Source: a virus
Length of the DNA: 64,000 bases
IMG/VR virus record: IMGVR_UViG_3300025133_000060
Coordinates: 17,531-81,530 of that record
Strand: one strand, 5' to 3'
A program made the translations under genes and the position numbers. A model generated the notes under the pieces. That model worked only from the letters and a program-made list of their open reading frames with translations. It was not told the DNA's origin and made no database searches. How positions within the stretch are numbered: position 1 is the stretch's first letter; every line of letters starts with the position of its first letter. Below, piece by piece: positions 2,916 to 61,553 of the stretch.

Positions 2916-4100
2916 TCACTTCTTCTTCACCTTCATGGCATTGTATGGCTTCTTGATAGCAGATTCCTGCACTTGCTTCGCCATATCCTCTGGGAGAATG
3001 GGCAACACTCGTTCCACCGCCGCCTTCGTCAATCCGACCATCTGGCCGAACACCGCCGGTGGCACGATGCGTTGAACTTCGGATGGAATGAACTCGGTGC
3101 GTTCGCCTTGTTGATATTCAACAGTCCATCCATCGGTCTCGATTTTCAATTCTTTGTTCATTGGGTCGAGTCGTGAACGCAAGTCCTTCTCGATGTTCTT
3201 GCGGCGAGATGTCAGGATTCCCTGTGCCGCCTTGATTTTAGCGAGTGCATCCAATTGCTCATCATCGGTGTCGAACTCCGATGCAACGAGGTCGAATGAG
3301 CCTTTGTGAATGAGAGTCTGAACCTTTGGGCAGATTGATTGATATGCACACCACTTGCACGAATCTCCGAGCGATGGTTTGCCTTCTTTGAGTGTCTTGA
3401 TGGATTCATACTTGGCCTTGAGCCATAACTTGAACTCTTCGATTTGCTCATCAGTCCAGACCGTTGACACCGGACCCCATCGAATCATATCGAATGTGAA
3501 TCGAAGTGGCCTGTCGGGGAACATTTGCTTCGCCCATGCCAGATAGATTCCGGCTTGAACATCGTTGTCGGCTTCGGCTTGCGACTTCGGCATCCTGTTG
3601 GTTTTGTAGTCAATGAGTTCTATCGTGCCGTCTTTGTGTTCCAGTATCAAATCAATGAATCCGAATATGGGAACTTCACCACCATCGACTTGTAATTTGA
3701 ATGGTGCGTGATGGCCACCACCCATTCGTTGTTCAGTAGCATAGACTCGCACAGGAGTCTTGCCACGCCTATCGAACCAACGGCGAAGCATCTGCTTGCC
3801 GTCTTGATAGAAGTCGAAGTCGACCGTATATTGTGGGTCAGCCGCCCATCGCTCATAGTGCTTCATCAACGCACCGAACTTGGGCTTGGGTGTTGACCCG
3901 TCTTTGTTGGGCTTGCGCCAATCCTCAAGCGCACCGTGAACAACATTCCCCAGCCGAGCCGCTTGCATCGAGGATGGGTGATTCGACATCTCTTTGAGAA
4001 TGCGCTCTGATTCGGAATCTGGGTCATACTGGAACTGATAAGCGAGGGTGCAATCCTTTGCCATTCGGAGTCGAGTGGCCGAGATGTATGGAACTTTCAT
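2916..4100 (-). CDS. PD-(D/E)XK nuclease, Cas4/AddB-like with predicted Fe-S cluster
   Basis: GNVVHGALE, GFIDLIL...IDYKT, QAGIY, N-terminal Cys plus CKWCAYQSIC. Confidence 0.85.
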   Translation of the reverse strand: MKVPYISATRLRMAKDCTLAYQFQYDPDSESERILKEMSNHPSSMQAARLGNVVHGALEDWRKPNKDGSTPKPKFGALMKHYERWAADPQYTVDFDFYQDGKQMLRRWFDRRGKTPVRVYATEQRMGGGHHAPFKLQVDGGEVPIFGFIDLILEHKDGTIELIDYKTNRMPKSQAEADNDVQAGIYLAWAKQMFPDRPLRFTFDMIRWGPVSTVWTDEQIEEFKLWLKAKYESIKTLKEGKPSLGDSCKWCAYQSICPKVQTLIHKGSFDLVASEFDTDDEQLDALAKIKAAQGILTSRRKNIEKDLRSRLDPMNKELKIETDGWTVEYQQGERTEFIPSEVQRIVPPAVFGQMVGLTKAAVERVLPILPEDMAKQVQESAIKKPYNAMKVKKK

Positions 4101-4149
4101 AGTGTATCACCTACAACCCCACCCATATCAAGGGTGTGGCAGATGCCGA

Positions 4150-11405: not shown

Positions 11406-13148
11406 TCACAACAAATGCCGCTTGAGCCACGCTGGTGCGGGTTGAATTGCTTCTCTAAACCAAGACGGCAGGAGGTGTCCGTTCAACCTGTAATATCTAT
11501 CCCACGACTGGTCGAGGATGAATAGATGACCAACATCGTCAGGTGTTCTGTTGATTCGACCTGCGCCTTGAACCAGTTTGAGAGTAGTGTTCAGATTGAA
11601 CCAACCTTGACAGGGTTTGGGGCAAGTGAACGAGCCACACAATCCATTGGTGTATTTGCTCGGCGGCTCATATGGACACTTCGGTGTTCCCTCATGTTCT
11701 CTTCGCCACTCATGTTCATCCTGCTCCATTCGTTGCTTGACTTGTGGGTCGGGTGTGAATAGATAGGGAACTTTTGAAATCACGAGCCACTCGGCCAATC
11801 TCCCCTTGAAGTCAAATCCCTCGCCGACATAGGTCGAGATGAGAACGAGGTCATCCCTCTTAGATGTGAAGAACTTATCGAGAGCGATGCCACGAGCCAC
11901 GCCGTTGGAATCGTGCGAGATGACTCTATCCCCTAAGCCTTCGGCTTCGAGCCCTTCGACCAATGTCTTGCGTATCGCATGGGTGTGTGGGAGAACCACG
12001 CCTCGTTTGTTCGGCCACTTTCGCATGATGGCGGCGATGGCTTTGACCTGACGAGGGATGGACTTCTCTCGCCGAGCATATGACATCGAGCCGCATGGTG
12101 AATAGTGAACATTGAAGTTCTCCTTCGGGAATGGTGAATCGGTGATTCTCACGAACAGGGTGCGCTGGTCGGCGAGCCCCAAACCTGACAGGAATGTGTC
12201 GATGTCGAGAATTGTTGCTGACATCATGATGCGTTGTCGACTCACGGAATCCAAAATTGCTGGTGCGATTTTGTTGACTCGAACTGGTTTTGCGATGAGG
12301 ATTTTGTTCCCTCGCCGGTCGGTATCGAGTTCAATAACCACATCATTGGGTTCTTCGAGAAGTTCGAGAAGCGTTGTTGTTCTCTGGATGATTGCTCTCA
12401 TGTCATCAATTTTGTTGGAATCCTCATCATCCTCTGCAACGGCCAATGTCTTATTCGCCCCGTCATAGAGTCGTTGAATGTCTGCGACCCAATCGGTTGG
12501 ATGATAGTGCATCGGGAATGTGGTGCGAGCCCCAAAGACTCGGTTGAAATCGGTTTGGGTGATTCGACATTCCATCAGCCCCATGAAGAATTGTTCCATC
12601 TGGTGCGCCTCATCAATGATGGCGAAGTCTCGTTGCCCGAACGATTGGTCGGGCGACTTCACCACTCGGAACAAATATGCTGGATTCGTGAGTGTGATTC
12701 GGGCATCAACGGCGGCGAACTTCTGTGCATAGTATGGGCATGGGTCATCGGCCTTTGTGTGTGAGCATCGCTTCTTGCCAACATAACATGGACCCTTGTC
12801 AGCAGTTCCAGTATTAACCCAACAAGCGAAGTTTGACCGGCCTTTGACTTCTTTCACAACATGGCCATAATCACGCCTGTATTGCTCTGTGAGACCAAGC
12901 GTTGGTGTCAATAGGTATGCGGATTGGAATCGTGCTTGAACAGTCATAGCGACAGCGGATTTGCCTATTCCTGTTGGGGCCTCAAGAACGATGTTGTCGA
13001 AGTTATCATTCTCCATCGCCCAATAGATGACCGACAATGCCTCGCCTTGATATGGTCGGGGGGATGGCATTGGAAAGTCTGGGCGAATCTGCTCCCACTC
13101 GTCTGGGAGTTCGGCACGAGACGGAATGTCAATTCTCACGACCGGCAT
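11406..13148 (-). CDS. DinG/XPD (Rad3)-family SF2 helicase
   Basis: EAPTGIGKS, KGRSNFAC, CPYY, IIDEAH, MSAT, EGFDF, QGAGRINR. Confidence 0.92.
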   Translation of the reverse strand: MPVVRIDIPSRAELPDEWEQIRPDFPMPSPRPYQGEALSVIYWAMENDNFDNIVLEAPTGIGKSAVAMTVQARFQSAYLLTPTLGLTEQYRRDYGHVVKEVKGRSNFACWVNTGTADKGPCYVGKKRCSHTKADDPCPYYAQKFAAVDARITLTNPAYLFRVVKSPDQSFGQRDFAIIDEAHQMEQFFMGLMECRITQTDFNRVFGARTTFPMHYHPTDWVADIQRLYDGANKTLAVAEDDEDSNKIDDMRAIIQRTTTLLELLEEPNDVVIELDTDRRGNKILIAKPVRVNKIAPAILDSVSRQRIMMSATILDIDTFLSGLGLADQRTLFVRITDSPFPKENFNVHYSPCGSMSYARREKSIPRQVKAIAAIMRKWPNKRGVVLPHTHAIRKTLVEGLEAEGLGDRVISHDSNGVARGIALDKFFTSKRDDLVLISTYVGEGFDFKGRLAEWLVISKVPYLFTPDPQVKQRMEQDEHEWRREHEGTPKCPYEPPSKYTNGLCGSFTCPKPCQGWFNLNTTLKLVQGAGRINRTPDDVGHLFILDQSWDRYYRLNGHLLPSWFREAIQPAPAWLKRHLL

Positions 13149-13250
13149 GAACACAAGGGGGGTCTCCCACCTTAATCAATCAAACATACCCCTATATCCA
13201 CACACACACACAATCTCTCATGTATATGTCTATCAGCACCCCTATGGGTT

Positions 13251-13290
13251 TGATTCATTGGCCTATCCCCCCTATGGGGGGATAATGATT
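13251..13290. repeat. 40-bp element with TATCCCCCC-N3-GGGGGGATA palindrome, copy 1; inverted copy at 56742-56781
   Basis: 35/40 identity to reverse complement of copy 2; adjacent (CA)n tract at about 13199-13212. Confidence 0.85.
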
Positions 13291-13352
13291 CAGACGATTT
13301 GAAGCGAGAGCATCAATGGTTGATGACTCTCAAATCACAATCACAATGGTGT

Positions 13353-14299: not shown

Positions 14300-14407
14300 G
14301 TTTAATCGTAGCAGTTCCCCCTATATGAAGGCTTCGCAATATCAATGGTTTTAACCCCTCAAAAGGGTGTTTTTTGACTGGCCGACTCATCAAAAAAGGC
14401 TCTGCGA

Positions 14408-14931: not shown

Positions 14932-14960
14932 AAGTCTAAACCCCTTTGGGGTTTAGACTT
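14932..14960 (-). terminator. Perfect 13-bp hairpin right after the giant tail gene
   Basis: AAGTCTAAACCCC-TTT-GGGGTTTAGACTT. Confidence 0.6.
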
Positions 14961-17900
14961 CAACCTTCAGGATAACCGGCCAAACCTTCGCCGCCACCAT
15001 CAATCGAAGTTCCGAGTTCCATTTGGATTCCGCCAGCAGATGGATAGAATACTTCTGCGCCTTTGGTGTTGGTTCGATACCACGCCAGTTCGTTGGTGAA
15101 CCATCTCAAGTCAATCTCGGATGCGTCATATCCCCAGAACCGTTGGAATCTCAATTGTGGGCTGTGATGTGGAAAGTCCTCTTCACCGGCCATCGTTTGA
15201 GCCGAACCGACTGGACTCCAAGTATTGTTGACTTCATCCCATCGAAGAGAAGGAACAGATAACCATCGAATGTTCACCGACCTAAGAGTGTTGGCGGTAG
15301 TATCGAACTCGATTGATGGAACCCAACAATGCACGAGATGTTGATGTTCACTCCCGACCGAAGAGTCCATGTATGGAGTAATTGGCGGAGTGATACTTTT
15401 TGTCCAGTTCGGGGATTCGGCGGGTTTGATGAACCCACCAATGTATGGAACTTCGGATGCAGCGGTTTCATCCCCTGTTGGTGTTGCCGCCCAAATGAGT
15501 GGGGATAGTGCGGATTGGCGAGCCTTCGGAACTGTCGCATCTCGATAGACTTCTCCGAATCTCCCATCATCCGAGCCAATCATCGTGAATGACATGACAA
15601 TGTGGATATTCCCTTTGCCGTCAGTAGTGAGCGAGATGTCTCGATAATTGGGATTGGTTTTGCGGAGTTCTGACACTCCATCATACACAGGACCCCGCCA
15701 TAGTGTGATGTGCGCTCCAAGACCATCTGTGCTGGTGTATTGTTCCGCAAGGGTCTTGCGAGTATCAAACACCGAGATGAGCGTCTGGCGTGGCGCATAG
15801 GCAACGGGAGAGGACTCCCTATCGTCTTTGATGGACAACACAATTGCCCTATCCCTTTCATCAATGATGGCATCATAATAGACCACATCTTTCGTCTCCA
15901 TTGGATTCTTTGAATCTGGTGGGAGTCCGACCACATGAAAGCACTTGGTTGTATCAAATGCGAATCGACCAGATGGGTCGCTGATTCGATTTGGTGATTG
16001 GCCGATGTTGCAGTATATTGCATCATAGTTTCGACTGGCATCGGCGAACGATTGAATTGGCAATCCACGATAGAACACCACAGGAATGTTGTCGCCTCTC
16101 AACACAACCTTCGGACAATCATTGTATGTTGTATAATGTGGACCCGATGCAGGTTGATTGAGGTCGGTCTCTGCCGCATCCACAATGAGACCATTCACCA
16201 CTTGATACCGATTATCGTCAGGTCGCCCCTGCAATTCTGCGTTGTCGATAGGAGTGAATGTTGGGAATGAATCTTCGCCAGCGAGTTTTGATGTGTAGTA
16301 TATTCGATTGTTCTGTGGCAATCCCGTTGAACCAACATGAGACATTGGTTGAACGAACGACAAATGAAGTCGGTCATTCCCATCTATCACAAGTGATGGG
16401 TGTCGCATATCCCACATTGTTCCACCAGCCTCAAGTCCGGTGTATGTCGCCCCGCCTTGAAGCAACACAGGTGTGTGGATTGACCAGTCCCAATCATAAA
16501 TGGGGTCGGGGTTTTGAGAGGGTGATGTGCGAACCGCTTTGTGATAATAGAATCTGTGCGCTCGATGGTTTGCCGTATCGTCTGGATTCGCATGATATTC
16601 GAGAATTGCATGAATCGTTCCCGCCGAATCCGATGCAAATGCCGCACCCATCACTCGGCCTTTGTGATATTCTGCTGGGGTCGTGAGACCTGCTCCTATC
16701 GAGTTCAATAAGGGGCCGACTTCATCCAATCCTCCGAACACAGCGGATTCATTTTGTGGTTTCATCGCCTTCTTATTCCAAAACAAATCTCCGTGAAGTG
16801 GCTTCTTGATGTGAGTCCATTGTGGCAAATTGTCTGAACCTGATTGGCAAGAACGGCGGATGAAGAATTGATGGAGTGTGCCGTCTGGTGTTCGCAATTG
16901 TCGTTGACCCATTCCGAGATTCTGTGGGCCTGACCCACCGGCCATTACTGCTGGGCCTGACATATCGTTGCCATCCATATTCGATTGCCGTTGAATCATA
17001 TACACCCCCTTCGGGTCTTGGAATCCCATCCCGACCGCCGAAGCGATTGAACCAGAATCCCACATCGGCTTCGCCGTCTGCGACACATGAACATCAACAC
17101 TCGATTGTAATTGCTCGGACAAAGCCAACACATCGAGTTCATGAATCTCGTTGACTCTCGCCAACATCAATGGTGAATATCGACTGGATTCAATCATCGC
17201 CAAGTCATAATCGGAATTGGGGAGAATCGGCATGGCCGAAGCGTGAAAGTGGTCAGTCGGATGGTCAGACCAAAACGCCTCAAGACCGAATGAGCCACTC
17301 ACGATGGGTCCGTGAACTCTTGTTCCAATGGTGTCCATTGGTGCAATTTGCGCCCCTGACACACCACCCGAACCCCAAGTGGGCTTATCCCATAGGTTCG
17401 TTCTCAAGAAGTATTGACCGGCCACAGGTCGAGCCGCATCCGGTGGCGATTCTCCACCGAGTTCAAATCCTGTGTTGAATTGTGATGCTCCCAGCAGATG
17501 AATGTTGTCGGTTCGGTGGAATGGAGTCTCCATCTCAAGTTCAATGGCGTTCTTTCCACCGGCTCTCGCTCGAACACTCACGGCTGGTGGAATTAACAAA
17601 TGAATTGGAATGTTGTAGCCGACTCCACCGTGAACTTGTTTGAATACTCGGTCGACTCGATATGGGTGCATTTTGGTTGAGATTCCATAATGCAGGGGTC
17701 CGTGATGCGACCAACCACCAACCCGACCACGCATCAACCGATGACCTTGAACCTCCGCACTCCCCCAAGAGAACACCCGACCACCGACAGTCAATGATGT
17801 CCATTCCATCGCCCCTATTGCTTCGAGTGGCGGTGGGAGATTTGGGTCCCAAGTCCGAACCAGATAGTTTGTTGGTTCTTCTCGCAAAGCCCTGCCATCA

Positions 17901-20900
17901 GATGCTTGATATTGGCTTTCATAGATGGTTGACCAATCGCTCAATAATGGGTCGAGAATCGCCGCCACAATGTCGGCCACGCTCGACACACTCACAGGTG
18001 CGAAGATGCGTTCGTGGGGTCCAGTTCCCAATTTATACACTATCATCGAATCAAGCGTGGTTGGGAATGATACTCCACGCAAGTCGACAAAGCGACCCAC
18101 ATTTGGAGCCCAGAGATTTGCGCCAGCACTATCCGAATCATCTGCGACATCTCCGAATCCTTTGAAAATTGCTTGCTCGGTAGGAGTAATGACTCCACCA
18201 ACGAGTGGACTTGCATCAAGTGATTCTGGTGCATCGGAGAAGAATGTTTGGTTATCTCCATAGGATATTGGGTCGAATAAGCCTCGTGGGAATGACCAGC
18301 CTGACCAGCCGAGTTCTTGGAATGGATTCGCACCAGAACCAAAGTCAGCAAATCCAATTGTGGTTGGAACGAACCGAGTCAATTTCACATGAGAATTGCG
18401 AATCCCCACCCACGCATCCGTGATTCTGGTGTCGTTGTCAACGAGGTCGGGGGTTGCTTTTGACATTGACTTGGCTGTGATTATCGGTTGGATGGTTGGG
18501 AATCCAGACGAGATGCGAGCCGAGTCGCTTAGAGCAGGTGTTCCATATTCATTGATTAAGAACGGGAGAGAGCGAGGGAGATTTGCATATGACATTCGAC
18601 AATCTGGGTATGAACCATAGGTGATTGGGATTGCTCTTTGACCAGACTCTTGATACCAATATGAGATTCGTGCGCCACTCCACCAAGTATCGCCGTCAGT
18701 CCATGTTTGTCGAGCGATATTTTCAATTGTTCCACCAGTTCCGATTGACACCTTCTCCCATGTGATGTCGAATAATGCTCGACCACGCTTGGCGAACCCC
18801 GTATCGGGGTCGGCTTTCGCATCGGAGAACATGAGGATGAGAGAACGGGCTTGAGTATTCGCCATCAATTTTGACCAAGTGGGATATGCCGAGAAGTTAT
18901 CGCTCTTGGGTGTTGAGCCGCCAGAGCCATTGACCGGAGTGGGAACAGAACTCGATGGTTTAGCATCTCCAGATTGTGGGTCGGGTCCGAAGCCAGCCGG
19001 ATAATCTGCCGACTCACCACCGATGGGAATGCACTTGCCGCCCGATTGATAATATCCGGCAGGACAACCGCCGGTGTCGAGGTCAGGATTCAAAGGATAT
19101 TTGATGTCAACCGCCGGATAATCGTTCTCGGTTTTGATGTAGTCGACATGAACCGCCGCCATAACGAAGCGACCATCATCCATCGCTCTTAGACTGGAAC
19201 AATGAAGCGTTGGGTGATAGATGGGCGCACTACCACCACTCGCCTTTGGATGCTTCACAGCGTTCTTCTCTTCACGACCGAGATAACGCATCATCTCAAT
19301 TTGAGGCATGACCCAATCATGTATCGACCACACCGCACCATATCCCAGCGGAGTATTTGTGAGTTCACCAATTTGAGTTCGAGTGATTGAATCACAAGTC
19401 GCCGCCGAATATGGAATCGACACACCAGAACTTGGAAACCCAGAGAGTATCGGGTTCGATAAGTATGTGCTGGAACGAGTATAGAGTGGGTCGAGAGTCG
19501 GAGAATATCGCCAAACCAACAATTCACAACCTTGCGGAATTGTAGGTGTGCCGACTCCATCTGGCCAAACCTGACCATTCCCCCATATCCCGTAGTGAGG
19601 TTGCCCATCAACGGTTGTCGATGTTTGGCACAATTGCGTTGGGTCTATGACATCTGCACCGATGAATATCTCGCCTTTGTATTCACAAGCATCCCACACA
19701 TGAGAGATGCCACCCCGCTGGAATGAACCACCGCCTTCAACCGCCGCACATAGGTCGGGGATTTTGGTGTTGGTATCAGCCAAAGCAAGTGGTCGGAATG
19801 GTGTTGCTTGGTGCAATCCCCACCCCATGTGAGCCTCACCCTCTTCAATATCAGCCCATGTGTGGCGAGGCATCACAGACATCGGGCATTCATTCTCTAA
19901 TGGGTCAATTCCAAGTGCGGCTCCAGCCGTTGCATCAATGAATATCTGTTCAAGAGATGTTGGGTCGATTCGGAATATGCCGTGATAGATGGTGCATGGA
20001 ATATCAGAGAAGTCGCAGTTCACAGATAGGCGAGTGCCATCGGGGTTATTCCGTTGAGTCGGTGTTCCGGTTGGTGTATTCCCCACGCTTGTGTCTGCTG
20101 TTCCATCTGGCACATGAGATTCTCGCACCACCGAGACAATGACATGATAGTCAACAAGAGGCTTGCGGAATGTTTGACTCGCCGCCGATGGATGGTTGGC
20201 CAATTTTGCGGCTCCTGCCGACACTTCAATGTCAGTATAGCCGGTGATGACGGGAACAATCTGAACTTTGGTTGGAACTCCATCTGCAATCCATCGACCT
20301 GTCGAATATGTGGAGTCGATGAGTTCTGGTGAGTCATCGCCCTTTGTATTGGAGCCGATAATTTTGCCTGTTGTTCCTGCTCCGCCCTGCTTAATCTGGT
20401 TTGAGTTCACCAATTGATGTGGAACTCGACCCAACGGACCCACCATAGTCGGCTGGTCGGGTATGGCCGAAGTGTGCAAATCTCCAGACGAGAAGTTCCT
20501 AAACCAAGTGGCGTTGGCATTGACATCAACACCGAGAGGATGAGTAGCGGCTCGACCTGCGTGGGTTGAGAGCGCATCGAACATTGGGTCAATTCGCCCC
20601 CCATCTGACCCATACAAATATGCTGGTTGTGTTGGTGTTCCTGTTGTATAGCCGTTGCGCCTGACAGGTGTGCCGGAATTGACTTGAATGTTCAACCCCG
20701 CATATCCCTTGCTCGCATCGGCGATAGACACAGGACCCAACACTCCACCAGTATCAGTCGCTTTGGTCGGTGCGAAGAATGCGGTGGCCGTGATGACTCC
20801 TTCATATCCAATTAACCCAACCGAGTCTGCGACAACACTCGCACCCAAGTCGGCTCGACCCAGATTGGTTGCCGTCAACGGGGTCGCTCCTGTTCCATCA

Positions 20901-21916
20901 TCGAATACATCATTCGTGAGAATCTGTTGAATTGTCGACCCGCCAGCAAGCGACCATTCTGAAACGGCTTCTGCCACATCTGTTGCACCCATTGTAATTG
21001 CCCCCGTCATACCATCTGGTGAACTGATGTCCTTGCCGGTCAACAGGAATGGTTGTTGTGTTCTCATGTTCACCGACCAATGCGCCGAGAAGTCAAAAGC
21101 ATCGGCATCGAACTGGATTCCCGCCGCCGTTGTCATGGTGCTTTCGATTGGGGCCGACACAACAGTCGTGAGATAATTGGAATTGTGAGCATCGTGATAA
21201 ATCATTCCGATTCCGTTCGAGGGAATTGCTGGAATCGAATCGTGAACAATCGCCTCAACAATTCCCCCACCAATGAAAGTCGGTTCGGTGCAAAGTCCGA
21301 TGGATGATTTTGCGACCGTAGTTCCATAGATGAAGTCATATTGAGTTCGATATTCTCCTGTGTTGGAATCCGATTCCTTCATCCACGAATGATTCGCTGG
21401 TCGAGGTGAAGCATATCGTTGGTCAGGATGGTCAGTATATTGACCACATTCCGTGATACTCAATCCAGCGAATTGAGCCGAACCTGTCAATTGAGTCGCA
21501 TCCCATCTCCCCATAGACACATCTTGGCCAATCTGACCGAACAACAACGACCCACGAGTGTGGCTCATGACGGGTGCGCTGGTGTTGATTCTCAAGCCTG
21601 TCGCTCGTGCTTCTTGATTCAAACCTGTCGGGTCCACTATCGGCCATTCGTCTTTGGCGAGATTGGTTGCCGAAGGACACACCGCTTTGGGATTGATTGT
21701 CGTTCCAGATGCGGTTGTTGCTTGAGTCGTTCGTGGTGTCCAAATGGCTTCATCAAATAACGCCATGCGAGTGGCTTGAGCATCGGCGATGTTGTCTTTG
21801 ATACTATCGTTGAACACCAGCGTCAATGGGAGTCCACGAGAACCGACCGGTGGAATAGCATCAACGGTGTCCACAGGCATTCCTGTGGCGGGAGTGATTG
21901 CTGGCGCTGGCGACAC
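14960..21916 (-). CDS. Giant virion protein (2318 aa), probable tail fibre/receptor-binding protein
   Basis: G/T/S/P-rich; C-terminal beta-propeller-like repeats (DSAGTIH, IDGNDRLH, TDGKGNIH); end of tail module. Confidence 0.65.
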   Translation of the reverse strand: MSPAPAITPATGMPVDTVDAIPPVGSRGLPLTLVFNDSIKDNIADAQATRMALFDEAIWTPRTTQATTASGTTINPKAVCPSATNLAKDEWPIVDPTGLNQEARATGLRINTSAPVMSHTRGSLLFGQIGQDVSMGRWDATQLTGSAQFAGLSITECGQYTDHPDQRYASPRPANHSWMKESDSNTGEYRTQYDFIYGTTVAKSSIGLCTEPTFIGGGIVEAIVHDSIPAIPSNGIGMIYHDAHNSNYLTTVVSAPIESTMTTAAGIQFDADAFDFSAHWSVNMRTQQPFLLTGKDISSPDGMTGAITMGATDVAEAVSEWSLAGGSTIQQILTNDVFDDGTGATPLTATNLGRADLGASVVADSVGLIGYEGVITATAFFAPTKATDTGGVLGPVSIADASKGYAGLNIQVNSGTPVRRNGYTTGTPTQPAYLYGSDGGRIDPMFDALSTHAGRAATHPLGVDVNANATWFRNFSSGDLHTSAIPDQPTMVGPLGRVPHQLVNSNQIKQGGAGTTGKIIGSNTKGDDSPELIDSTYSTGRWIADGVPTKVQIVPVITGYTDIEVSAGAAKLANHPSAASQTFRKPLVDYHVIVSVVRESHVPDGTADTSVGNTPTGTPTQRNNPDGTRLSVNCDFSDIPCTIYHGIFRIDPTSLEQIFIDATAGAALGIDPLENECPMSVMPRHTWADIEEGEAHMGWGLHQATPFRPLALADTNTKIPDLCAAVEGGGSFQRGGISHVWDACEYKGEIFIGADVIDPTQLCQTSTTVDGQPHYGIWGNGQVWPDGVGTPTIPQGCELLVWRYSPTLDPLYTRSSTYLSNPILSGFPSSGVSIPYSAATCDSITRTQIGELTNTPLGYGAVWSIHDWVMPQIEMMRYLGREEKNAVKHPKASGGSAPIYHPTLHCSSLRAMDDGRFVMAAVHVDYIKTENDYPAVDIKYPLNPDLDTGGCPAGYYQSGGKCIPIGGESADYPAGFGPDPQSGDAKPSSSVPTPVNGSGGSTPKSDNFSAYPTWSKLMANTQARSLILMFSDAKADPDTGFAKRGRALFDITWEKVSIGTGGTIENIARQTWTDGDTWWSGARISYWYQESGQRAIPITYGSYPDCRMSYANLPRSLPFLINEYGTPALSDSARISSGFPTIQPIITAKSMSKATPDLVDNDTRITDAWVGIRNSHVKLTRFVPTTIGFADFGSGANPFQELGWSGWSFPRGLFDPISYGDNQTFFSDAPESLDASPLVGGVITPTEQAIFKGFGDVADDSDSAGANLWAPNVGRFVDLRGVSFPTTLDSMIVYKLGTGPHERIFAPVSVSSVADIVAAILDPLLSDWSTIYESQYQASDGRALREEPTNYLVRTWDPNLPPPLEAIGAMEWTSLTVGGRVFSWGSAEVQGHRLMRGRVGGWSHHGPLHYGISTKMHPYRVDRVFKQVHGGVGYNIPIHLLIPPAVSVRARAGGKNAIELEMETPFHRTDNIHLLGASQFNTGFELGGESPPDAARPVAGQYFLRTNLWDKPTWGSGGVSGAQIAPMDTIGTRVHGPIVSGSFGLEAFWSDHPTDHFHASAMPILPNSDYDLAMIESSRYSPLMLARVNEIHELDVLALSEQLQSSVDVHVSQTAKPMWDSGSIASAVGMGFQDPKGVYMIQRQSNMDGNDMSGPAVMAGGSGPQNLGMGQRQLRTPDGTLHQFFIRRSCQSGSDNLPQWTHIKKPLHGDLFWNKKAMKPQNESAVFGGLDEVGPLLNSIGAGLTTPAEYHKGRVMGAAFASDSAGTIHAILEYHANPDDTANHRAHRFYYHKAVRTSPSQNPDPIYDWDWSIHTPVLLQGGATYTGLEAGGTMWDMRHPSLVIDGNDRLHLSFVQPMSHVGSTGLPQNNRIYYTSKLAGEDSFPTFTPIDNAELQGRPDDNRYQVVNGLIVDAAETDLNQPASGPHYTTYNDCPKVVLRGDNIPVVFYRGLPIQSFADASRNYDAIYCNIGQSPNRISDPSGRFAFDTTKCFHVVGLPPDSKNPMETKDVVYYDAIIDERDRAIVLSIKDDRESSPVAYAPRQTLISVFDTRKTLAEQYTSTDGLGAHITLWRGPVYDGVSELRKTNPNYRDISLTTDGKGNIHIVMSFTMIGSDDGRFGEVYRDATVPKARQSALSPLIWAATPTGDETAASEVPYIGGFIKPAESPNWTKSITPPITPYMDSSVGSEHQHLVHCWVPSIEFDTTANTLRSVNIRWLSVPSLRWDEVNNTWSPVGSAQTMAGEEDFPHHSPQLRFQRFWGYDASEIDLRWFTNELAWYRTNTKGAEVFYPSAGGIQMELGTSIDGGGEGLAGYPEG

Positions 21917-21960
21917 ATCAAATGGTCATTCGTGCCGCTTTAAGTGGTTATTGATGAAAT

Positions 21961-22266
21961 GAAAAAAGACTTCAACCCCCGAAGGAGTATGAAGCGAGTC
22001 GAGATTTAAGGCAGAACAAAACCTTTGGACAGTTTAACCCCCACTCCGGTTCTCGCTCACAAGCGGTGATTTGCTTAGAACTCTGACAGGCCTTCTTGGG
22101 GGAATACGCCGCATTCACGCCTTGATATTTCAACCACCGATATTCCGGTGGCTCTTGGTATTTCAACCCGCAAGGCGATACTCTGTTTGGCGCATCCATG
22201 AATCCTCTCGACTCAATGCCCCCATTCAAAGAAGAGGGGCGGCTTCGGTGGGGGTGTTCTCCCACA
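21961..22266 (-). ncRNA. Candidate structured ncRNA A (about 300 nt)
   Basis: Own promoter at 22289-22316; nested helices GAGUCGAGA/UCUCGACUC, GGAUGCGCC/GGCGUAUUC, CGCCUUG/CAAGGCG, CCACCGG/UCGGUGG, CCCCCA/UGGGGG; UUCG hairpin then U6. Confidence 0.65.
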
Positions 22267-22316
22267 AACCTATCGAGTCAGCATCGACTATATGAACTCT
22301 TCGGAATATCAATGGT

Positions 22317-24128
22317 TTATTGAGATATTCCAAGCGTGAACTTCAATGTCGACATCAAGTCTTGGCCTTGCCGACCCACCGTCAATGTCATTGTCGAACC
22401 TGATGGACTCATGCCCCATGCGATGTTGAATATCCTATGGCGACCAGATAGACTCGCCTCGTTCGATGCGAACTCCATCACATCTCCGACTCTCAAATCG
22501 AATCGCTCTGGAATGCCGTTGACCACCCACTTGGTTCGTTGAAGTCCTTGAGTATTCAAGAAGTATTCGCCAACCAATTTTGCTTGAACTTCATCGGTGA
22601 TTGAATCATCCTCAATTCTCTTCTCCACAGGAATGGATGGGTATCGAGTGGAATCGGTTGCTGGAACTGACACATTTATGTCCAGTTCAGGATTCGACAC
22701 TATCGCAACATTGAATCCTGTGATTTCACCGGATTCTCTCTCAATTCCTGTTGGATAGAAGTCTTGTGGCAACGCACTTCTCGGCATTCGACCGGCGATG
22801 AATGGTTGGACTGTTGCATCATCGACTTCACGCAATTTGCGAAAATTGATGTAGCCATCCGCCGAGCAATATATCTGGTTCAAGGCGGGAGTGCTATTGA
22901 TGATATTCAATATCGTTTGGATTGCCGACAGGCGAGTCTGACCAACGAAGTTCATTCCGGCTGGGAGAACGACATGGGATTGATTTGCCATGCGACCAAC
23001 AGGCGGAGCATAAGTGGAGTTCGCCACAATGTCTTTGATAACGGTTGCCGCATCGGTTTGAAAATATGTCATTGACCCCTTGACCACTTCGAGATTCAAA
23101 TAGCCGAGCGCACACAAACACTTGAATGAAATGTCGCTCGATGATTCGTGAACTTCTGATACAAATCCGGTGAACACAAGTGGTGGACTCGCCCATGTTC
23201 TCGGACTCGCATACACTTGAACTGTATCGCCTCGCTTAATCCAGCCAGTTCTTCTGCCAGATGGATTATTGAGTTCGATATTGACTTCGGTGGGGCCATT
23301 GAAGTTCTGTGTGAGATTCACAGAAGTGATTCCATGCAAATCATTGAGTCCGTTGATAACAACAGTCGGGGATTGTGGTGTTGCTTCATCTCGTGCGAGG
23401 GGTCCATAGAGATTCCTGAACAACACTCTCCGTGAGCGAGCGAAGAATATCTTGTGCGCCCAGCCGTTTCTAAGCCCCCCTAAGCGCATCCTTTTGGGTC
23501 GGTTAGTCCATTGTAGTCCTTCGGGATTCCAACCGCCGTCAGAGAAGCCCAATCGCCCCAAATTGAATACTGGTTGAGGGAGAATGGCGGTGGGATATGC
23601 ACCTTCGGTGGGGCCGGTTGTCATGGAGAATCCACCACGAGGACCCCCGCCTCTTCTGGTGATTATGTCTTGTTGGTCGGGGAATCCTGTTGAACCTTGA
23701 TAATTGTAGCCGAATCCGAGCGCACCCGTTTTGACATCGCCATGCAATTGAGGGTCAAACGGTCTTGGTGTGGTCAGGCTTGTGTAGCCCAGCGTGGTGT
23801 TCCTATCTCGCAACCAAACGCCACTCAAGTCAGATGGGAATGGAATCATATCCAAACCCCAATCCACCGGATAATGTGCCGGTCGATACATGAGTTCCTT
23901 TTCACTATGACTTGCATCGAGTTCGACTCCTGTGCCTTCGCTCATAGATTCGTGGGAATGTTCCAACCAGATTCGTGAAGCCCAACGAGCGATGGCGGTG
24001 CGAGGTCGGCGAGGGTCTTGACCCATCCGTTCGATTTCATCCAACAAGCCCTTCGGCGGAGTGATGATTAGTTCATCATCGCCAGACCTGACCAAGCGGT
24101 GGAATCGCTCGATACTGTCTTTGTCCAT
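22317..24128 (-). CDS. Tail tip/baseplate hub-like protein
   Basis: IKRGDTVQVY..VFTGFVSEV..CALGYL and LRVGDVM..HRIFNIAW..MTLTVG patterns typical of hub proteins; tail module. Confidence 0.65.
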   Translation of the reverse strand: MDKDSIERFHRLVRSGDDELIITPPKGLLDEIERMGQDPRRPRTAIARWASRIWLEHSHESMSEGTGVELDASHSEKELMYRPAHYPVDWGLDMIPFPSDLSGVWLRDRNTTLGYTSLTTPRPFDPQLHGDVKTGALGFGYNYQGSTGFPDQQDIITRRGGGPRGGFSMTTGPTEGAYPTAILPQPVFNLGRLGFSDGGWNPEGLQWTNRPKRMRLGGLRNGWAHKIFFARSRRVLFRNLYGPLARDEATPQSPTVVINGLNDLHGITSVNLTQNFNGPTEVNIELNNPSGRRTGWIKRGDTVQVYASPRTWASPPLVFTGFVSEVHESSSDISFKCLCALGYLNLEVVKGSMTYFQTDAATVIKDIVANSTYAPPVGRMANQSHVVLPAGMNFVGQTRLSAIQTILNIINSTPALNQIYCSADGYINFRKLREVDDATVQPFIAGRMPRSALPQDFYPTGIERESGEITGFNVAIVSNPELDINVSVPATDSTRYPSIPVEKRIEDDSITDEVQAKLVGEYFLNTQGLQRTKWVVNGIPERFDLRVGDVMEFASNEASLSGRHRIFNIAWGMSPSGSTMTLTVGRQGQDLMSTLKFTLGISQ

Positions 24129-24164: not shown

Positions 24165-24437
24165 TCAAAAGTTCGTTTTGATGTAGCAAGATGCGAGATG
24201 GTCAATGAATCCGTGAATTGCTTCGGGGTTATGCCATTCGATTTCACGAATGGTGTGGCGAATCTGCGCCTGTTCTGGGTATGATGCGACTTCAATAACC
24301 ATGCGGATAACTTCATCAGAGTCGATGTAGTGGCACATCGACTGGTCATCAATGTATTGGATGGTTCGATTTGGCAGGTTGCGCTCTGCGAAGTATGTGG
24401 TCAAGTATTTCTGAACGAGAGTTTCTTGGGTCGCCAT
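24165..24437 (-). CDS. Hypothetical protein (90 aa), self-promoted cassette within tail genes
   Basis: ATG 22 nt after TTCATATA with upstream ATTGAGA/ATTGTGATT boxes. Confidence 0.7.
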   Translation of the reverse strand: MATQETLVQKYLTTYFAERNLPNRTIQYIDDQSMCHYIDSDEVIRMVIEVASYPEQAQIRHTIREIEWHNPEAIHGFIDHLASCYIKTNF

Positions 24438-49467: not shown

Positions 49468-49667
49468 ATAAGAAGGCGCAGGTGCAATCTCTCACCATGA
49501 CGGCAGAACCGACCAAGCGAGGCTTTGGGAATCGGCGGCGAACCCCCGACCCGATTTGATGGTTGGGGAGCGACCCCGCATCCAATACACCATAGAACTC
49601 TCCCCGCCCTCATGCCGCCGAAGCGAGCGTCAGGGGCCACACTCCGCTAAGAGTGGGGTTCTCTGCT
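49468..49667 (-). ncRNA. Candidate structured ncRNA C (about 200 nt)
   Basis: Cassette-type promoter at 49690-49713 with no start codon at +23; helices AGAAC/GUUCU, CACUC/GAGUG, CGC-UUCG-GCG, AUGGU/ACCAU, GGGG/CCCC, AAUCGG/CCGAUU, GGUG/CACC. Confidence 0.65.
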
Positions 49668-49715
49668 AATCAAGACGAGGGGTGTTCAGTATATCAATGT
49701 TTTGATTCTCAATTC

Positions 49716-54318: not shown

Positions 54319-54374
54319 AATTCATTCATGGATTGCACACCATTATGAACTCGCCGGTATTGATATAGTGGGGT

Positions 54375-54499
54375 AAAGGAAAAGGATTGGTGGGGGATGC
54401 CACTTCGACTATACATTTGTTGGCCGACCACTCGTTGTGGCCGTTTAAGGGATTACTCTCCCACTTGCGGTCTCGTTCCGCATCCCAAGTCGCTTGGGT
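54375..54499 (-). ncRNA. Candidate multi-hairpin small RNA D (about 125 nt)
   Basis: Promoter at 54522-54545 with no start codon at +23; consecutive hairpins CCCAAG-CGA-CUUGGG, UGCGG-AACGAGA-CCGCA, GGGA-GAGUAA-UCCC, GGCCAC-AACGA-GUGGUC; CCUUUUCCUUU tail. Confidence 0.65.
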
Positions 54500-54540
54500 A
54501 TTTGATGCGAGGGTGTTGGTGTATATCAATGCTTTGGTTC

Positions 54541-55404
54541 TCAAGCCTCAAATGATACGGTTCCACTCATGTCGCCATCTCGGTCGAGAGCCAAGAACTG
54601 TTGAGTAGTCTTGAGCATCATCATTTTCGCCCTGTCGATATTCCGCTGGGTCTGGTCGCCATGCTCCATCCAGTTATCGGAGTCAATATCCCCTCGAACA
54701 CAGTATGCAATTTGACCTTGCTTACGAAGTAATTTGGGAGATGAGATTGCGATGAGTTCCTGCTCAAGTGATTTGATAGCGAACAAATCCGCACCGGCAT
54801 CAGGATGCGGAGTTCCATCGGCCAAGTTTCTCGGCCAACAAACCAAGTCTTGATATGAATCTGGCAACGGTTGGAATGCCACCGATGGAATCACAACCGT
54901 CTTAGACGAATGGAGTCCTTTGTGTGGGCGATTGAATTGAAGTGCGGTGGCATCGAGAACGAATCCTTTCGCCGCACAAACCACATGGCCATCATAGCCA
55001 TCACCATCGACAACCTGTTCGTGGAATATCCCCAGATAATATGGCACAAGGTCGGGTCGGGTTTTGGGTTTGTTCCTATTCCCGCCACGCTGGTTGCGAG
55101 CCTTTGCTCTGGCTTGCCACGAGTCATGTTTGGATGGTTTGGGTGCTTTGATAGGCATCCCACCGGCGAATCGAACATAGTCATAATTCCACCCATACAC
55201 ATCACAAGCAATCGCTTTGGCTTCTGCATCGAACCCCACTTCTCTAAGAGTGTGAGCCATAGCCTCGCTGATTTGATAGCAACAATCTGGGAACATCTTG
55301 GAGTCTTGGAGCATAATGGCGGCATTCAAGACGGCTTCAATCTCATGTGGAAAGTCGGGCATCCTGTGATATGTGAGGTCGACTTGGACTTCTTGGTCGC
55401 TCAT
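54541..55404 (-). CDS. Hypothetical protein, possible transglutaminase/papain-like Cys-His-Asp enzyme
   Basis: DCCYQIS...YDGHVV...VLDATALQF. Confidence 0.6.
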   Translation of the reverse strand: MSDQEVQVDLTYHRMPDFPHEIEAVLNAAIMLQDSKMFPDCCYQISEAMAHTLREVGFDAEAKAIACDVYGWNYDYVRFAGGMPIKAPKPSKHDSWQARAKARNQRGGNRNKPKTRPDLVPYYLGIFHEQVVDGDGYDGHVVCAAKGFVLDATALQFNRPHKGLHSSKTVVIPSVAFQPLPDSYQDLVCWPRNLADGTPHPDAGADLFAIKSLEQELIAISSPKLLRKQGQIAYCVRGDIDSDNWMEHGDQTQRNIDRAKMMMLKTTQQFLALDRDGDMSGTVSFEA

Positions 55405-56781: not shown

Positions 56782-57406
56782 GATGAGACCCCCTCTTGAC
56801 ACACATACACACCCAATCTGGTGTGGTTGGGCGCAGTATATCATTCTCCCATTTTGTAGTGTGTGTGTGTCCCATACACCCCCTTCGTTTGTTTAATTGA
56901 TTTGATGGAACATAAGTAGTAATATAGCGAAAAAAAATAATGAAAAAACGAGAATTCTATTTTGAGAGGATATTCAAGCGAAAACGAAAAACCAAATGCT
57001 TCTCGACCGACAGGCGGGGGGTCATGGCTCCGGCAGATTGTCGACCATCAGGCTATCTGGAGCGAATGACATTCTCATCCCCCCCACGATGCTGAATATA
57101 TTCCAGTTCCCGAAGTCGAATCATCATCGACAATTCTCTGGGAGCGAGAGCGAGGCATCATGCACCCGCACACCTATCGCACACCCTTCACATCATTCGA
57201 TGATTCGGCGAACGCACAGATTGGTCAAAGCATTCCGAACTGGCACATCTATCTGTCAGATGGCCGGTCGTGTTGTTGACCATGTGCATCCCACCAGATG
57301 GTGGCACACCCATGCACACCCTTCGATGAAGGCGGTGATGATTGAACACCCCCCACACCCCGAAGGATGCAGGGAGTGAACCATCGTTGGTTGACTGACT
57401 TGGGAT

Positions 57407-57946
57407 TCAAGCGGTGCGAGCAGTGAACTGCTGGCGACCTGCTTTCATTCCACGAGTCTCGTTGGTGATGGACTTTAGAAGTGCTTCAGCAGCGGCGAAC
57501 TTCTCGGAGTCGAAGTCGAGTCCAAGTATTCGTGCTTGTGTTGCGACATCTCCATTGATGAGTGATTCTTTCATCTGACTGGTGATGTTCTCTGCGGTGA
57601 TGGTGTTGTTGTTCATCAAGAGTAATAGTGCAAGACTCTTTGTTCCAAGTTTCTGTGTGATTACTGCATCTGGGTTGTCAAGTCCGACTGTTGCATCGCC
57701 GGTGATTTGGCTGGTTGCTCCGGTGTTGTTGTCAACGATTGTGAGGTCAACGCTGTTGGTCTGCTTCTCGGCAGGTGCGTCATTCACGGTTGTGCGGTCA
57801 ATCTTTTTCTGCTTTGTTGCCCACGAAGCAACGGCGCATCCTGCGCCTGTTGACATAACGGCAGAGGAATCCACAAGGGTTCCTGTTGCCCTGTCAAGGG
57901 TTAATTCGGTGGTCTGGCTTTCGGTTTCGGTTTCGGTTTGGCTCAT
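57407..57946 (-). CDS. Hypothetical protein (179 aa), self-promoted cassette
   Basis: Promoter ATTGATATAACCGAAGCATTGATAAG at about 57983-58008; GGAGAG SD. Confidence 0.7.
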   Translation of the reverse strand: MSQTETETESQTTELTLDRATGTLVDSSAVMSTGAGCAVASWATKQKKIDRTTVNDAPAEKQTNSVDLTIVDNNTGATSQITGDATVGLDNPDAVITQKLGTKSLALLLLMNNNTITAENITSQMKESLINGDVATQARILGLDFDSEKFAAAEALLKSITNETRGMKAGRQQFTARTA

Positions 57947-59535: not shown

Positions 59536-61553
59536 TCATCCATTGTGTCTTGAGATATGGCGACACCATCCTTGAAGCCGGTCAATACCCGATTCTTCTC
59601 TTCGGGCAGGTCGACATGAGGAACATGACAATCAACGGCTTCAATTCTCTCACCGAGCCAACGAATGACCGGAACTGCCATCGAGTTCCCACAGGCTTTG
59701 TAGCGATGTCCATCTGGACACTCGGATTCGGGTTTGCCTTTCCATTCGATGCGAGTCCAGTTATCGGGGAATCCCTGCAATCGCTCACACTCCAATGGAG
59801 TCAATCTGCGAACTATCATCTCCCTGCGAATCGCCGGATAACCTTGACCAGCCTGACCACCTTGAGATGATGAGAGTGTTGGGTGCATATCGGCTTCAAA
59901 GACCGCCCCATCTCCCTTCGTTGTGAATGCCTTGACATCGGTGGGTTGACCGACTCCAGCACTCCCACGCACACCCAATGCGTATGATTGGCCATCCTGT
60001 CGATACCCCTTTCCAGCCAACGGCGACTTCTTGTTGTATTGTTCAACATCTTGAAGCGACACAACATCATCCGGTTGAGCAACCAATGTCGCAGCGTTGC
60101 GAGGGTTGGTCTCTTTGGTGATTGTTGGAGTTATCGAACCATCGTTGGGTCCTAATTTGACATAGTGGCTCAAATCCCCATCCTTCGAGCGACTCATATT
60201 TGCTTGGAATGACACCGCATCATCCTCTTGAACAATCGCCAGCCCACCTTGATTGAGAGCAGGATTGGGTTGCATTGTGTCGAGAGTCGGTGCAATCTCC
60301 ACGCCAGATTGTAATCCCGAATCTGGATTTGACGATTTCATGGAGTTCGAGGATTGTGAATCGAACTTGAATATCTCCACATTGGGTTCTTGAGCAATCA
60401 TCGTCTGACCTTTGCCATCGCTCGTGAGAAGTGTTCCAGTCTTTTGACCATCATCGTCAATCAATCGAACTTCATCTCGTGAATTGACAGCCCATGCACC
60501 AGCGGTTGGTGTAGCAACCAATGGTCGCTCATTCCCTGCCATCACGGTCGGTTGGGTGTTCTCCATACAATTCCCCATCTGGGCTGGCATATTCCCTTCA
60601 ATGCCGATGGGCAAGTCGCCATTCATCTCTTGTGTATGTGCAACGAGCGAACAGTCAGATTGACAATGAAGAGTCGGTGCGAGGTTTTTGACAACCGCAC
60701 CCCATTGGTCGGCTTGACTCCCACCAATCCCCCACACTTCATCGTCAATCTCGACTCCAACCAATGCTTTATCGTCTTGACAATTCAATGTCGGTGCGAG
60801 GTCATCGCCGAATGTCGCTCGTGCTTGGCCACCTTCGATTCCGATGGCCTTCACTCTTCTTCGGTCGAGGTCGGTGGATGATTCAAACCATCCTTGCCCC
60901 TCTCCAATGCTCTCTGGAGAACCTTCGGCATTCGCTTGGCGTTTGATTCCAGATGCCTTCGGAGAATCCCCTGACAGGCTATTGGGCTCAAATAATACCG
61001 CTGCGGAATGTCGCCAATCGGCTCCAAGATGTCCAACAACGAACACCCTTCTGCGTCTTTGTGGGACTCCGAAATGTTGAGAGTCAAGAATCCTGTATGA
61101 GACCCCATACCCGCATTCCCCCATGAGTGCGAGTAGGGCTCCAAAATCCCTCCCTCCGTCAGATGACAGGAGTCCTGCCACATTTTCGAGAATGAACCAT
61201 GTTGGTCGAACTGTGTCAACAATCCGGCAGAACTCGATGGCCAAGTTCCCACGAGGGTCATCCAATCCAAGACGCTTTCCTGCAACAGAAAACGATTGAC
61301 ATGGTGAGCCTCCGATAATAAGGTCGATGTCTTTGTCTTTCCACTCATCCCAATTCACCTTTGTAATATCTCCGAGATTCGGAACATCTGGGAATCGTTG
61401 AGCGAGAACCGCCGATGGGAATGGTTCGATTTCACAGAACAATTGTGGCTCCCAACCGAGTGGATGCCAAGCGACTGATGCGGCTTCGATACCGGCGAAT
61501 AGTGAGATGTATTTGAACGGCTTCTTAGGCGTTGAGATGGGTTGGTCGGACAC
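59523..61553 (-). CDS. C5-cytosine DNA methyltransferase with expanded repetitive variable region
   Basis: SLFAGI, GGSPCQSFS, ENV, QRRRRVF, RRLTPLECERLQGFPD, YKACGNS; about 8 PTL-type repeats; GTG start with SD. Confidence 0.93.
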   Translation of the reverse strand: MSDQPISTPKKPFKYISLFAGIEAASVAWHPLGWEPQLFCEIEPFPSAVLAQRFPDVPNLGDITKVNWDEWKDKDIDLIIGGSPCQSFSVAGKRLGLDDPRGNLAIEFCRIVDTVRPTWFILENVAGLLSSDGGRDFGALLALMGECGYGVSYRILDSQHFGVPQRRRRVFVVGHLGADWRHSAAVLFEPNSLSGDSPKASGIKRQANAEGSPESIGEGQGWFESSTDLDRRRVKAIGIEGGQARATFGDDLAPTLNCQDDKALVGVEIDDEVWGIGGSQADQWGAVVKNLAPTLHCQSDCSLVAHTQEMNGDLPIGIEGNMPAQMGNCMENTQPTVMAGNERPLVATPTAGAWAVNSRDEVRLIDDDGQKTGTLLTSDGKGQTMIAQEPNVEIFKFDSQSSNSMKSSNPDSGLQSGVEIAPTLDTMQPNPALNQGGLAIVQEDDAVSFQANMSRSKDGDLSHYVKLGPNDGSITPTITKETNPRNAATLVAQPDDVVSLQDVEQYNKKSPLAGKGYRQDGQSYALGVRGSAGVGQPTDVKAFTTKGDGAVFEADMHPTLSSSQGGQAGQGYPAIRREMIVRRLTPLECERLQGFPDNWTRIEWKGKPESECPDGHRYKACGNSMAVPVIRWLGERIEAVDCHVPHVDLPEEKNRVLTGFKDGVAISQDTMDEWFS
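60851..61348 (-). CDS. Nested +1-frame ORF inside the C5 MTase (165 aa)
   Basis: TLNISESHKDAEGCSLLDILE..IPQRYYLSPIACQGILRR..MPKVLQRAL. Confidence 0.5.
   Translation of the reverse strand: MSGKTKTSTLLSEAHHVNRFLLQESVLDWMTLVGTWPSSSAGLLTQFDQHGSFSKMWQDSCHLTEGGILEPYSHSWGNAGMGSHTGFLTLNISESHKDAEGCSLLDILEPIGDIPQRYYLSPIACQGILRRHLESNAKRMPKVLQRALERGKDGLNHPPTSTEEE

Follow-up and report, generated by a model that had tools for sequence, protein, structure and literature searches.

A predicted stand-alone gene for a structured non-coding RNA in a marine, probably archaeal, head-tailed virus

Between two genes of a marine head-tailed virus, encoding a protein of 603 amino acids (aa; 22317-24128, minus strand) and a giant protein of 2318 aa (14960-21916, minus strand), lies a gap which raises the question of whether it encodes an RNA, a small protein or neither. 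The gap is part of a stretch of 64,000 nucleotides (nt), referred to here as the window, comprising positions 17,531 to 81,530 of IMG/VR virus record IMGVR_UViG_3300025133_000060; coordinates are those of the window unless prefixed by the name of a related locus (L087, L007 and so on). An earlier note on this DNA had proposed a multi-domain RNA over 21961-22316 on the minus strand, here termed RNA A, with a 97-codon GTG open reading frame (ORF) as the alternative reading. That ORF is present at 21972-22265 (-), and is supported as coding neither by a homologous locus nor by codon usage. The best explanation overall, and a probable one, makes RNA A a stand-alone gene whose product is a structured non-coding RNA of ~304 nt, carried by a marine head-tailed, probably archaeal virus. 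Of the interval first proposed as RNA, the 5' 50 nt (22266-22316) are promoter and spacer, the remainder being retained as RNA.

Folding of the predicted transcript (21962-22265, minus strand) with RNAfold gave a free energy of -111.8 kcal/mol (z = -2.95), matched by none of 100 dinucleotide shuffles and with agreement between the minimum free energy (MFE) and centroid structures, as against z = -1.19 for the plus strand. After regression on G+C content the fold ranked 8th of 956 folding windows across the whole 81.5-kb genome. When the RNA is numbered from its 5' end (RNA nt n = window position 22266-n, minus strand throughout), most of the helices proposed in the earlier note were reproduced. 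These comprise the 5' hairpin GUGGG/CCCAC (nt 1-5/14-18), the following GCCCC.../...GGGGC hairpin (nt 26-48), a 9-bp closing helix GAGUCGAGA/UCUCGACUC (nt 52-60/262-270) spanning ~219 nt, the first domain GAUGCGCC/GGCGUAUU (nt 70-77/156-163) enclosing CGCCUUG/CAAGGCG (nt 89-95/142-148) and CCACCG.../...CGGUGG (nt 113-134), the CCCCCA/UGGGGG helix of the second domain (nt 164-169/223-228), and a terminal CUCC-UUCG-GGGG hairpin (nt 271-297) followed by six U residues (U6, nt 299-304). A GUUCU/AGAAC helix proposed within the second domain was not recovered, RNAfold pairing GUUCUAAGC with GCUUGUGAGC instead, and the homologue described below keeps GUUC/GAGC without AGAAC.

A metagenome scan produced a sole homologue of the RNA A core, at L087:2699 to ~3175 (JAAHTG010000106.1), where the flanking protein is 79% identical. 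Following its own TATA box and 21 nt, L087 reads GUGGG...CCCAC-CGAAGCC, then continues with ~73% identity across the aligned stretch, flanks included. Blocks identical in the two sequences are UGCGGGUUGAAAUACCAAG (19 nt), CAGAGUUCUA, UGUGAGCGAG and GUUAAAC, and identical blocks of 19 and 10 nt stand out against the ~73% background. For a covariation test, the MFE structure derived from the window alone was laid onto a structure-blind MAFFT alignment of window and L087. Paired cells amounted to 84%, compared with 38-43% when the 3' partners were slid, and 11 pairs were changed on both sides compared with 0-2 when slid, a value reached in none of 500 shuffles. In a set of helices picked by eye and containing 44 pairs, 33 pairs were unchanged, one was changed on one side, 10 were compensatory and none was broken. 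Stem positions of the terminal UUCG hairpin are likewise changed in L087 with pairing kept, and an independent fold of L087 recovered the 5' hairpin H1, hairpin H2, the long-range helix P3, the UGAAAU hairpin and the domain-2 helix. The L087 comparison therefore supports the predicted fold of RNA A in six helices as well as in the terminal hairpin.

Searches for further homologues of the core were negative. None was found by blastn in phage sequences, and when the gap was compared by blastn with the ~60 related IMG/VR loci whose downstream sequence was usable, the core stayed unmatched, the only matches being to the promoter/H1 region and to the flank within the giant gene. Pattern scans of IMG/VR yielded no homologue, two further candidate loci proving on alignment to be chance matches. 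Contigs from four other marine DNA sequencing runs, belonging to different studies, carry the RNA stretch without any difference and so provide no population variation.

The signals flanking RNA A are consistent with an archaeal-type transcription unit. Genome-wide, TATA-like 8-mers of the form TT(G/C)ATA(A/T)(A/G) are located 21-23 nt 5' of ATG at more than 20 genes, a spacing which would imply leaderless mRNAs, the archaeal arrangement; such transcripts are dominant in some archaea, for example Haloferax (PMC4983044). The TATA box of RNA A (22296-22289) is followed by 23 nt to the G of GUGGG, and in L087 the box TTGATATA stands 21 nt before GUGGG; because of this spacing in both sequences the start of RNA A is predicted at ~22265, the first base of the 5' hairpin. 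The box forms the last eight bases of a 24-nt motif, TTGATATTCCGAAGnnTTnATATA, of which there are 9-12 copies in the 81.5-kb genome, always oriented toward the following gene, and none with a reversed-pattern control. At the other end, runs of at least six T number six on the strand holding most genes and 13 on the other strand, and at least two of the six besides that of RNA A lie in gene-free stretches (14392-14397, directly after a gene's stop codon, and 56930-56948). RNA A thus has both the archaeal-type TATA distance (~22-27 nt) and an oligo-U end, the latter being absent from L087. In L007 and L087 the giant gene's box, AACCACTTAAAG, is conserved, and it is similar to the TTAAAC/GATAAC boxes in front of other structural genes. 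As RNA A has its own TATA box and U6 end, and the giant gene a box of its own, RNA A is read as its own transcription unit, and its status as a stand-alone non-coding RNA gene, taken by itself, is considered highly probable.

Bacterial and phage-type promoters were also considered at this site. TTGATA and TATAGT occur there 14 nt apart, where a sigma-70 promoter requires 16-18, and a consensus scan found none at the site. The idea of a T7-like phage RNA polymerase promoter, suggested by the TATAG-G ends, was dropped once the archaeal TATA/leaderless spacing rule appeared; PF00940 was not found in the genome, in a search whose control was uninformative. Examples of the TATA rule on the minus strand of the window are found at 4131, 5061, 6479, 8971, 14329, 24467 and 52992, while structural genes carry another box, GATAAC, CTTAAC or TTAAAC, followed by CC. 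The spacer between TATA box and predicted start (22266-22288, minus strand; UCGAUGCUGACUCGAUAGG) resembles the second hairpin of a different RNA (the L007 type described below) found at the equivalent position in a relative (UCGAUGCGAGUCGAGGGG, L001:5927-5957), a likeness which hints at recombination between cassettes. Coordinates of the features of RNA A and its surroundings, together with the changes seen in L087, are collected in Table 1.

Table 1. Features of RNA A and adjoining sequence in the window, with changes in the L087 homologue
Feature	Position	Strand	Basis or remark	Change in L087
Upstream half of cassette-type promoter repeat (TTGATATTCCGAAGAG)	22297..22312	(-)	Recurrence of 24-nt motif; possibly B recognition element (BRE) or regulator site	
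TATA box TTCATATA	22289..22296	(-)	Genome-wide TATA-to-ATG spacing	
RNA A, predicted ~304-nt transcript	21962..22265	(-)	TATA spacing, U6, fold, homologue covariation	
H1, 5'-terminal hairpin GUGGG/CCCAC	22248..22265	(-)	Kept in seven divergent slot RNAs	
Linker CCGAAGCC	22241..22248	(-)	Single-stranded in MFE fold; possible pairing of GAAGC with GCUUC at 21995-21991	
H2 hairpin GCCCCU.../...GGGGGC	22218..22240	(-)	Compensatory change	One pair, C-G to A-U
P3 closing helix, 5' strand (GAGUCGAGAGGAU)	22202..22214	(-)	Pairs with 21996-22004	GAGUCG/CGACUC to GAUACG/CGUAUC (two compensatory pairs)
P3 closing helix, 3' strand (UCUCGACUC)	21996..22004	(-)	RNAfold and L087 comparison	As for 5' strand
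Domain 1	22103..22196	(-)	Outer GAUGCGCC/GGCGUAUU, P4 CGCCUUG/CAAGGCG, hairpins GGU-UGAAAU-ACC and CCACCG/CGGUGG, both UUGAAAUA copies	
P4 (domain 1)				CGCCUU/AAGGCG to AUCCAU/AUGGAU (three compensatory pairs)
CCACC hairpin (domain 1)				A-U to C-G
Domain 2	22038..22102	(-)	CCCCCA/UGGGGG enclosing GCCUGU/ACCGG and GUUC/GAGC; invariant blocks CAGAGUUCUA, UGUGAGCGAG	
Outer helix (domain 2)				C-G to U-A
Inner helix (domain 2)				G-C to C-G and U-A to C-G (two compensatory pairs)
Invariant unpaired GUUAAAC	22032..22038	(-)	Identical in window and L087	None
3'-terminal hairpin GCUUCAUACUCC-UUCG-GGGGUUGAAGU	21969..21995	(-)	RNAfold	UUCG-capped hairpin kept
U6 tract, predicted archaeal-type terminator	21962..21967	(-)	Depletion of sense-strand T runs	
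TATA-like box AACCACTTAAAG of 2318-aa gene (outside RNA A, next transcription unit)	21938..21950	(-)	21 nt before GTG at 21916	

The earlier note had also drawn attention to a direct repeat, GGUUGAAAUA(C/U)CAAG, as a possible duplicated protein-binding site. The repeat is indeed present twice (nt 98-112 and 131-145), and the first UUGAAAUA copy, located in the GGU/ACC hairpin, is invariant between window and L087; the second copy is not conserved, which does not favour duplication of a binding site. A double T-loop module of the RNase P, T-box or L1-stalk type, formed by U-N-N-R-A pentanucleotides, is not supported, as the second copy reads GAGAAAAUAGAG in L087 and has lost its leading U.

The position occupied by RNA A, hereafter the slot, holds different contents in related viruses. 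All 80 relatives retrieved show a gap here, 286-1140 nt long in those whose downstream gene could be placed. The gaps vary greatly in length and their contents sort into many unrelated sequence clusters, with evident protein genes in L079 and L071. A second type of slot RNA, ~450-700 nt in length, was identified in L007 (4891-5360), L012 (2379-2875) and L010 (4120-4605), whose flanking protein is 63-79% identical; changes on both sides were seen in 24 of its 129 predicted pairs. A third type, predicted to be pseudoknotted, is present in the more distant relatives L046 (4915-5160) and L047 (4850-5070), with compensatory changes in 10 of 61 predicted pairs and a long helix GACAGACU.../...GAGACUGUCUG, from whose loop further pairing extends to the sequence adjoining the start of the giant gene. 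RNAs with otherwise divergent sequences share a 5' module consisting of a GU(N)GGG...CCC(N)AC hairpin followed by CCGAAG, found in the window (22241-22265) and at L087:2699, L007:4891, L012:2379, L053:4010, L064:2734 and L067:4872. Across these seven RNAs the third pair of the stem is variously G-C, U-G, U-A or A-U, with one A.C mismatch, whilst CCGAAG is invariant. Two further candidate common elements were discarded: k-mer enrichment directed at a shared UGAAAUA motif returned only TATA elements and runs of G5/C5, and occurrences of a 5'-3' pairing between CCGAAG and CUUCGG across RNA types fit ordinary UUCG loops and were uninformative.

The main rival explanation gives RNA A a role in cis, as leader, insulator or attenuator of the 2318-aa gene. 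Transcripts from the cassette promoter would head toward the giant gene, and the terminal hairpin with U6 would determine whether they end there, GAAGC and GCUUC competing with the terminator stem, the possible switch raised in the earlier note. The element is always directly upstream of the giant gene, and both GAAGC (nt 20-24) and GCUUC (nt 271-275) are conserved in L087. L087 lacks a U-tract and none was seen in L007, so that in both of these transcripts would continue into the giant gene, and the slot RNA of L046 and L047 pairs up to the giant gene's start region. However, both elements are invariant, so that the alternative pairing has no covariation behind it, and the giant gene's own conserved TATA-like box is present at the normal 21-nt spacing. 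Archaeal termination requires only a U-tract, and masking of the stem would not obviously switch termination on that basis. The unrelated protein genes found at the slot in L079 and L071 also speak against an obligatory leader, and this explanation is considered unlikely.

Several points weigh against a stand-alone RNA gene. The covariation is drawn from two sequences, and L087 contains an insertion of ~170 nt (2966-3125) between GUUAAAC and the 3' strand of P3; a 129-codon TTG frame (L087:2852-3241) crosses this insertion, which may be either an additional RNA domain or coding sequence. The homologous UUCG hairpin of L087 is not followed by a U-tract, there being no run of five T in the gap, and the 492-nt stretch of L087 shows no folding advantage over shuffles (z = -0.57). 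Both transcript ends of RNA A are predicted from sequence signals, and assignment of the host domain is indirect. The frame beginning at the predicted start is open for 97 codons as far as the terminator hairpin, an outcome seen in 1.8% of dinucleotide shuffles, or in 6.3% if every sense frame is counted. GUG starts are found on 6-9% of leaderless mRNAs in the archaeon Haloferax (PMC4983044), and the giant gene here also seems to start at GTG. The region may accordingly encode a lineage-specific small protein or a dual-function RNA.

The second rival takes up this possibility, the region being a leaderless mRNA for an orphan 97-aa protein with the structure incidental or secondary, or an RNA with both functions. 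A start-type codon does lie at the predicted transcript start, the frame stays open to within 10 nt of the U-tract, the small protein cassettes of this genome have exactly this layout, and real protein genes occupy the slot in some relatives. In L087, however, the GTG frame meets a stop after 35 codons, at a UGA inside GGUUGAAAU, no sense frame runs through the core without a stop, and indels of -2, -1, +8, +12, +12 and +4 nt place the conserved blocks in different frames. Within the only block which is in the same frame in both viruses the substitutions are all non-synonymous and are the compensatory partners of helices. The earlier note had held that an ORF conserved as protein, with synonymous changes that break the helices, would speak for coding; the opposite was found, the frame being lost and the helices kept. 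The ORF has a codon score of 0.007 compared with 0.204 +/- 0.084 for genes; in a leave-one-out comparison, 0.9% of 97-codon windows from real genes scored this low and 17% of stop-free wrong frames this high. Its G+C content by codon position is flat (0.51/0.52/0.56) compared with that of genes (0.55/0.43/0.51), and it starts with GTG, while every other ORF-preceding promoter of this TATA type uses ATG. A HMMER search of the ORF protein against 1.84 billion representatives gave no relative except one marginal repetitive match (E 3e-4). Because L087 has lost the frame but retained the helices, the decisive one of three tests, the non-coding reading is preferred, and the comparison indicates that RNA A acts as an RNA rather than as an mRNA of the 97-codon ORF; a coding function is judged less likely still than that of a leader. 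For contrast, a 90-aa ORF at 24168-24437 (-), in the gap upstream of the 603-aa gene and with a TTCATATA box 22 nt before its ATG, has gene-like codon usage (score 0.22), indicating a real small cassette gene. A 74-aa ORF on the plus strand scored -0.17 and was regarded as spurious.

That the region is a non-functional spacer or decayed cassette which folds by chance would fit the single homologue of the core and a slot highly variable in length and content, but is very improbable given compensatory changes in six helices as well as in the terminal hairpin (no pair of the curated set being broken), identical blocks of 19 and 10 nt against ~73% background identity, identical sequence in four further marine metagenomes from different studies, and a strand-specific fold.

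Comparison with known RNAs provided no family for RNA A. With Rfam 15 at gathering level there was no match in the window, L001 or L002, and the L007-type RNA likewise went unmatched in L001, a second label for the contig of L007. At E values up to 10 only noise was returned, consisting of a plus-strand SNORD27 match of 17.7 bits and a bxd_5 match of 11 bits in L087, with nothing for RNA A alone. No manA, GOLLD, ROOL, HEARO, RNase P, pRNA, riboswitch or small-ribozyme model in Rfam 15 matched RNA A, and ARAGORN detected neither tRNA nor tmRNA in the window. A template of a diversity-generating retroelement, or a repeat shared with the neighbouring genes, was considered without dedicated follow-up, and the ORFs scanned included no visible reverse transcriptase. 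RNA A and its L087 homologue are a new two-member RNA family. In being virus-borne, multi-helix, a few hundred nt long, equipped with conserved loops and known mainly from uncultivated sequence, they resemble the orphan structured RNAs of phages and marine metagenomes such as GOLLD (RF01998), ROOL (RF03087), manA (RF01745) and the IMES RNAs; unlike these, RNA A has no Rfam match, a probably archaeal host, a stand-alone unit of TATA box and oligo-U, and two members only. Phage 'morons' are similar in forming their own transcription unit between conserved tail-region genes with cargo that varies among close relatives, although here the cargo is an RNA and the signals are of archaeal type, where morons have protein cargo and bacterial signals. 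The phi29 pRNA (RF00044), which functions in virion assembly, is likewise a virus-encoded structured RNA of similar size located among or near structural genes; however, its model does not match RNA A, and the unrelated cargo at the slot in relatives argues against an essential assembly part.

The genome in which RNA A lies is an 81,530-bp record of a head-tailed marine virus, the window being part of it. Its genes include those for portal, prohead protease, terminase and tape-measure proteins along with a family B DNA polymerase (PolB) and an RFC-like clamp loader, and the best full-length matches of PolB among named viruses are haloarchaeal tailed viruses at ~23% identity. Magroviruses, head-tailed viruses of marine group II archaea, have double-stranded DNA genomes measuring 65-100 kb that carry a head-tail module together with a replication set of archaeal type (PMC5434244). 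Compared with that published description, the present genome has a size of 81.5 kb, a head-tail module, PolB and an RFC-like protein. The host is most likely archaeal and the virus magrovirus-like, as judged from genome size, gene content and promoter signals. The earlier placement of the RNA between two tail genes was correct as to location between two genes, the 'tail' label of these genes resting on synteny only. Marine metagenomes contain 87 relatives of the 603-aa protein, many carried by 76-84-kb contigs and some with weak matches to a YqbQ-like family; the closest by protein is P0002 (ENA, 81% identical), and a search of phage sequences gave no match. The sole relative from a scan of genome contigs, with nothing closer there, is L098 (PBLX01000067.1), a 55.5-kb contig filed under a 'Legionellales bacterium' metagenome-assembled genome, whose version of the 603-aa protein is 52% identical; this contig most likely comes from a related virus and was wrongly binned.

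Other loci in the window have features reminiscent of RNA A. Just after the terminase gene, at 49468-49713 (-), a TTGATATA TATA box (49697-49690) with no start codon at 21-23 nt precedes G+C-rich sequence with a helix-forming look, making this a second candidate RNA gene ('RNA C'). A third candidate ('RNA D'), at 54355-54545 (-), has the same TTGATATA box (54529-54522), again with no start codon at the usual distance, followed by short hairpins and a CCUUUUCCUUU stretch. A TATA box without start codon also occurs at 57990 (-). Three minus-strand stretches, 13001-13340, 57031-57540 and 60431-60940, fold better than RNA A relative to G+C content and are at the top of the 956 folding windows.

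If RNA A is a stand-alone non-coding RNA gene, its expression and action might be envisaged as follows. Transcription would start from the cassette-type promoter, ~23 nt downstream of the TTCATATA TATA box, at the G which opens the 5' hairpin (~22265), and would stop at U6 (21967-21962) just 3' of the UUCG-capped hairpin, the 2318-aa gene being transcribed from its own TATA-like box. The gene would therefore be expressed from the promoter class of accessory cassettes rather than that of structural genes. The transcript is predicted to fold into H1, the CCGAAGCC linker, H2 and the long-range P3 closing two multi-helix domains, and the hairpins at both ends may stabilise it. As accessory cargo in a swap-prone slot before the giant tail-region gene, it would presumably act in trans, with a protein or RNA partner bound via the invariant unpaired blocks (GAGUAU, the UUGAAAUA loop, CAGAG, GUUAAAC and CCGAAGCC), possibly serving as decoy or scaffold during infection. 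Granted that RNA A is a non-coding RNA gene, a role as trans-acting binder or decoy is a tentative proposal, somewhat short of evenly balanced. A wider suggestion, more doubtful again, is that the slot is a family-wide exchange slot for interchangeable structured RNA genes with unrelated bodies, several of them sharing a 5' handle which docks or stabilises via a common viral or host factor. These would constitute an RNA-based accessory repertoire, for example of anti-defence decoys or host-takeover RNAs, with RNA A as one of four or five in the genome.

No description of a structured non-coding RNA from a marine archaeal virus was found in the literature, and the words promoter, non-coding and intergenic do not occur in the founding magrovirus paper (PMC5434244). 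RNA A represents a clean case, with predicted start and stop signals, a fold backed by compensatory changes and a rival ORF ruled out by the homologue. Specialists would be drawn to the probable archaeal-virus context, to the exchange slot and to the 5' handle that several slot RNAs have in common. The presence of different RNAs at the same slot, together with the common 5' hairpin-CCGAAG module, suggests that RNA genes are swappable accessory cargo in viruses of the abundant marine group II archaea.

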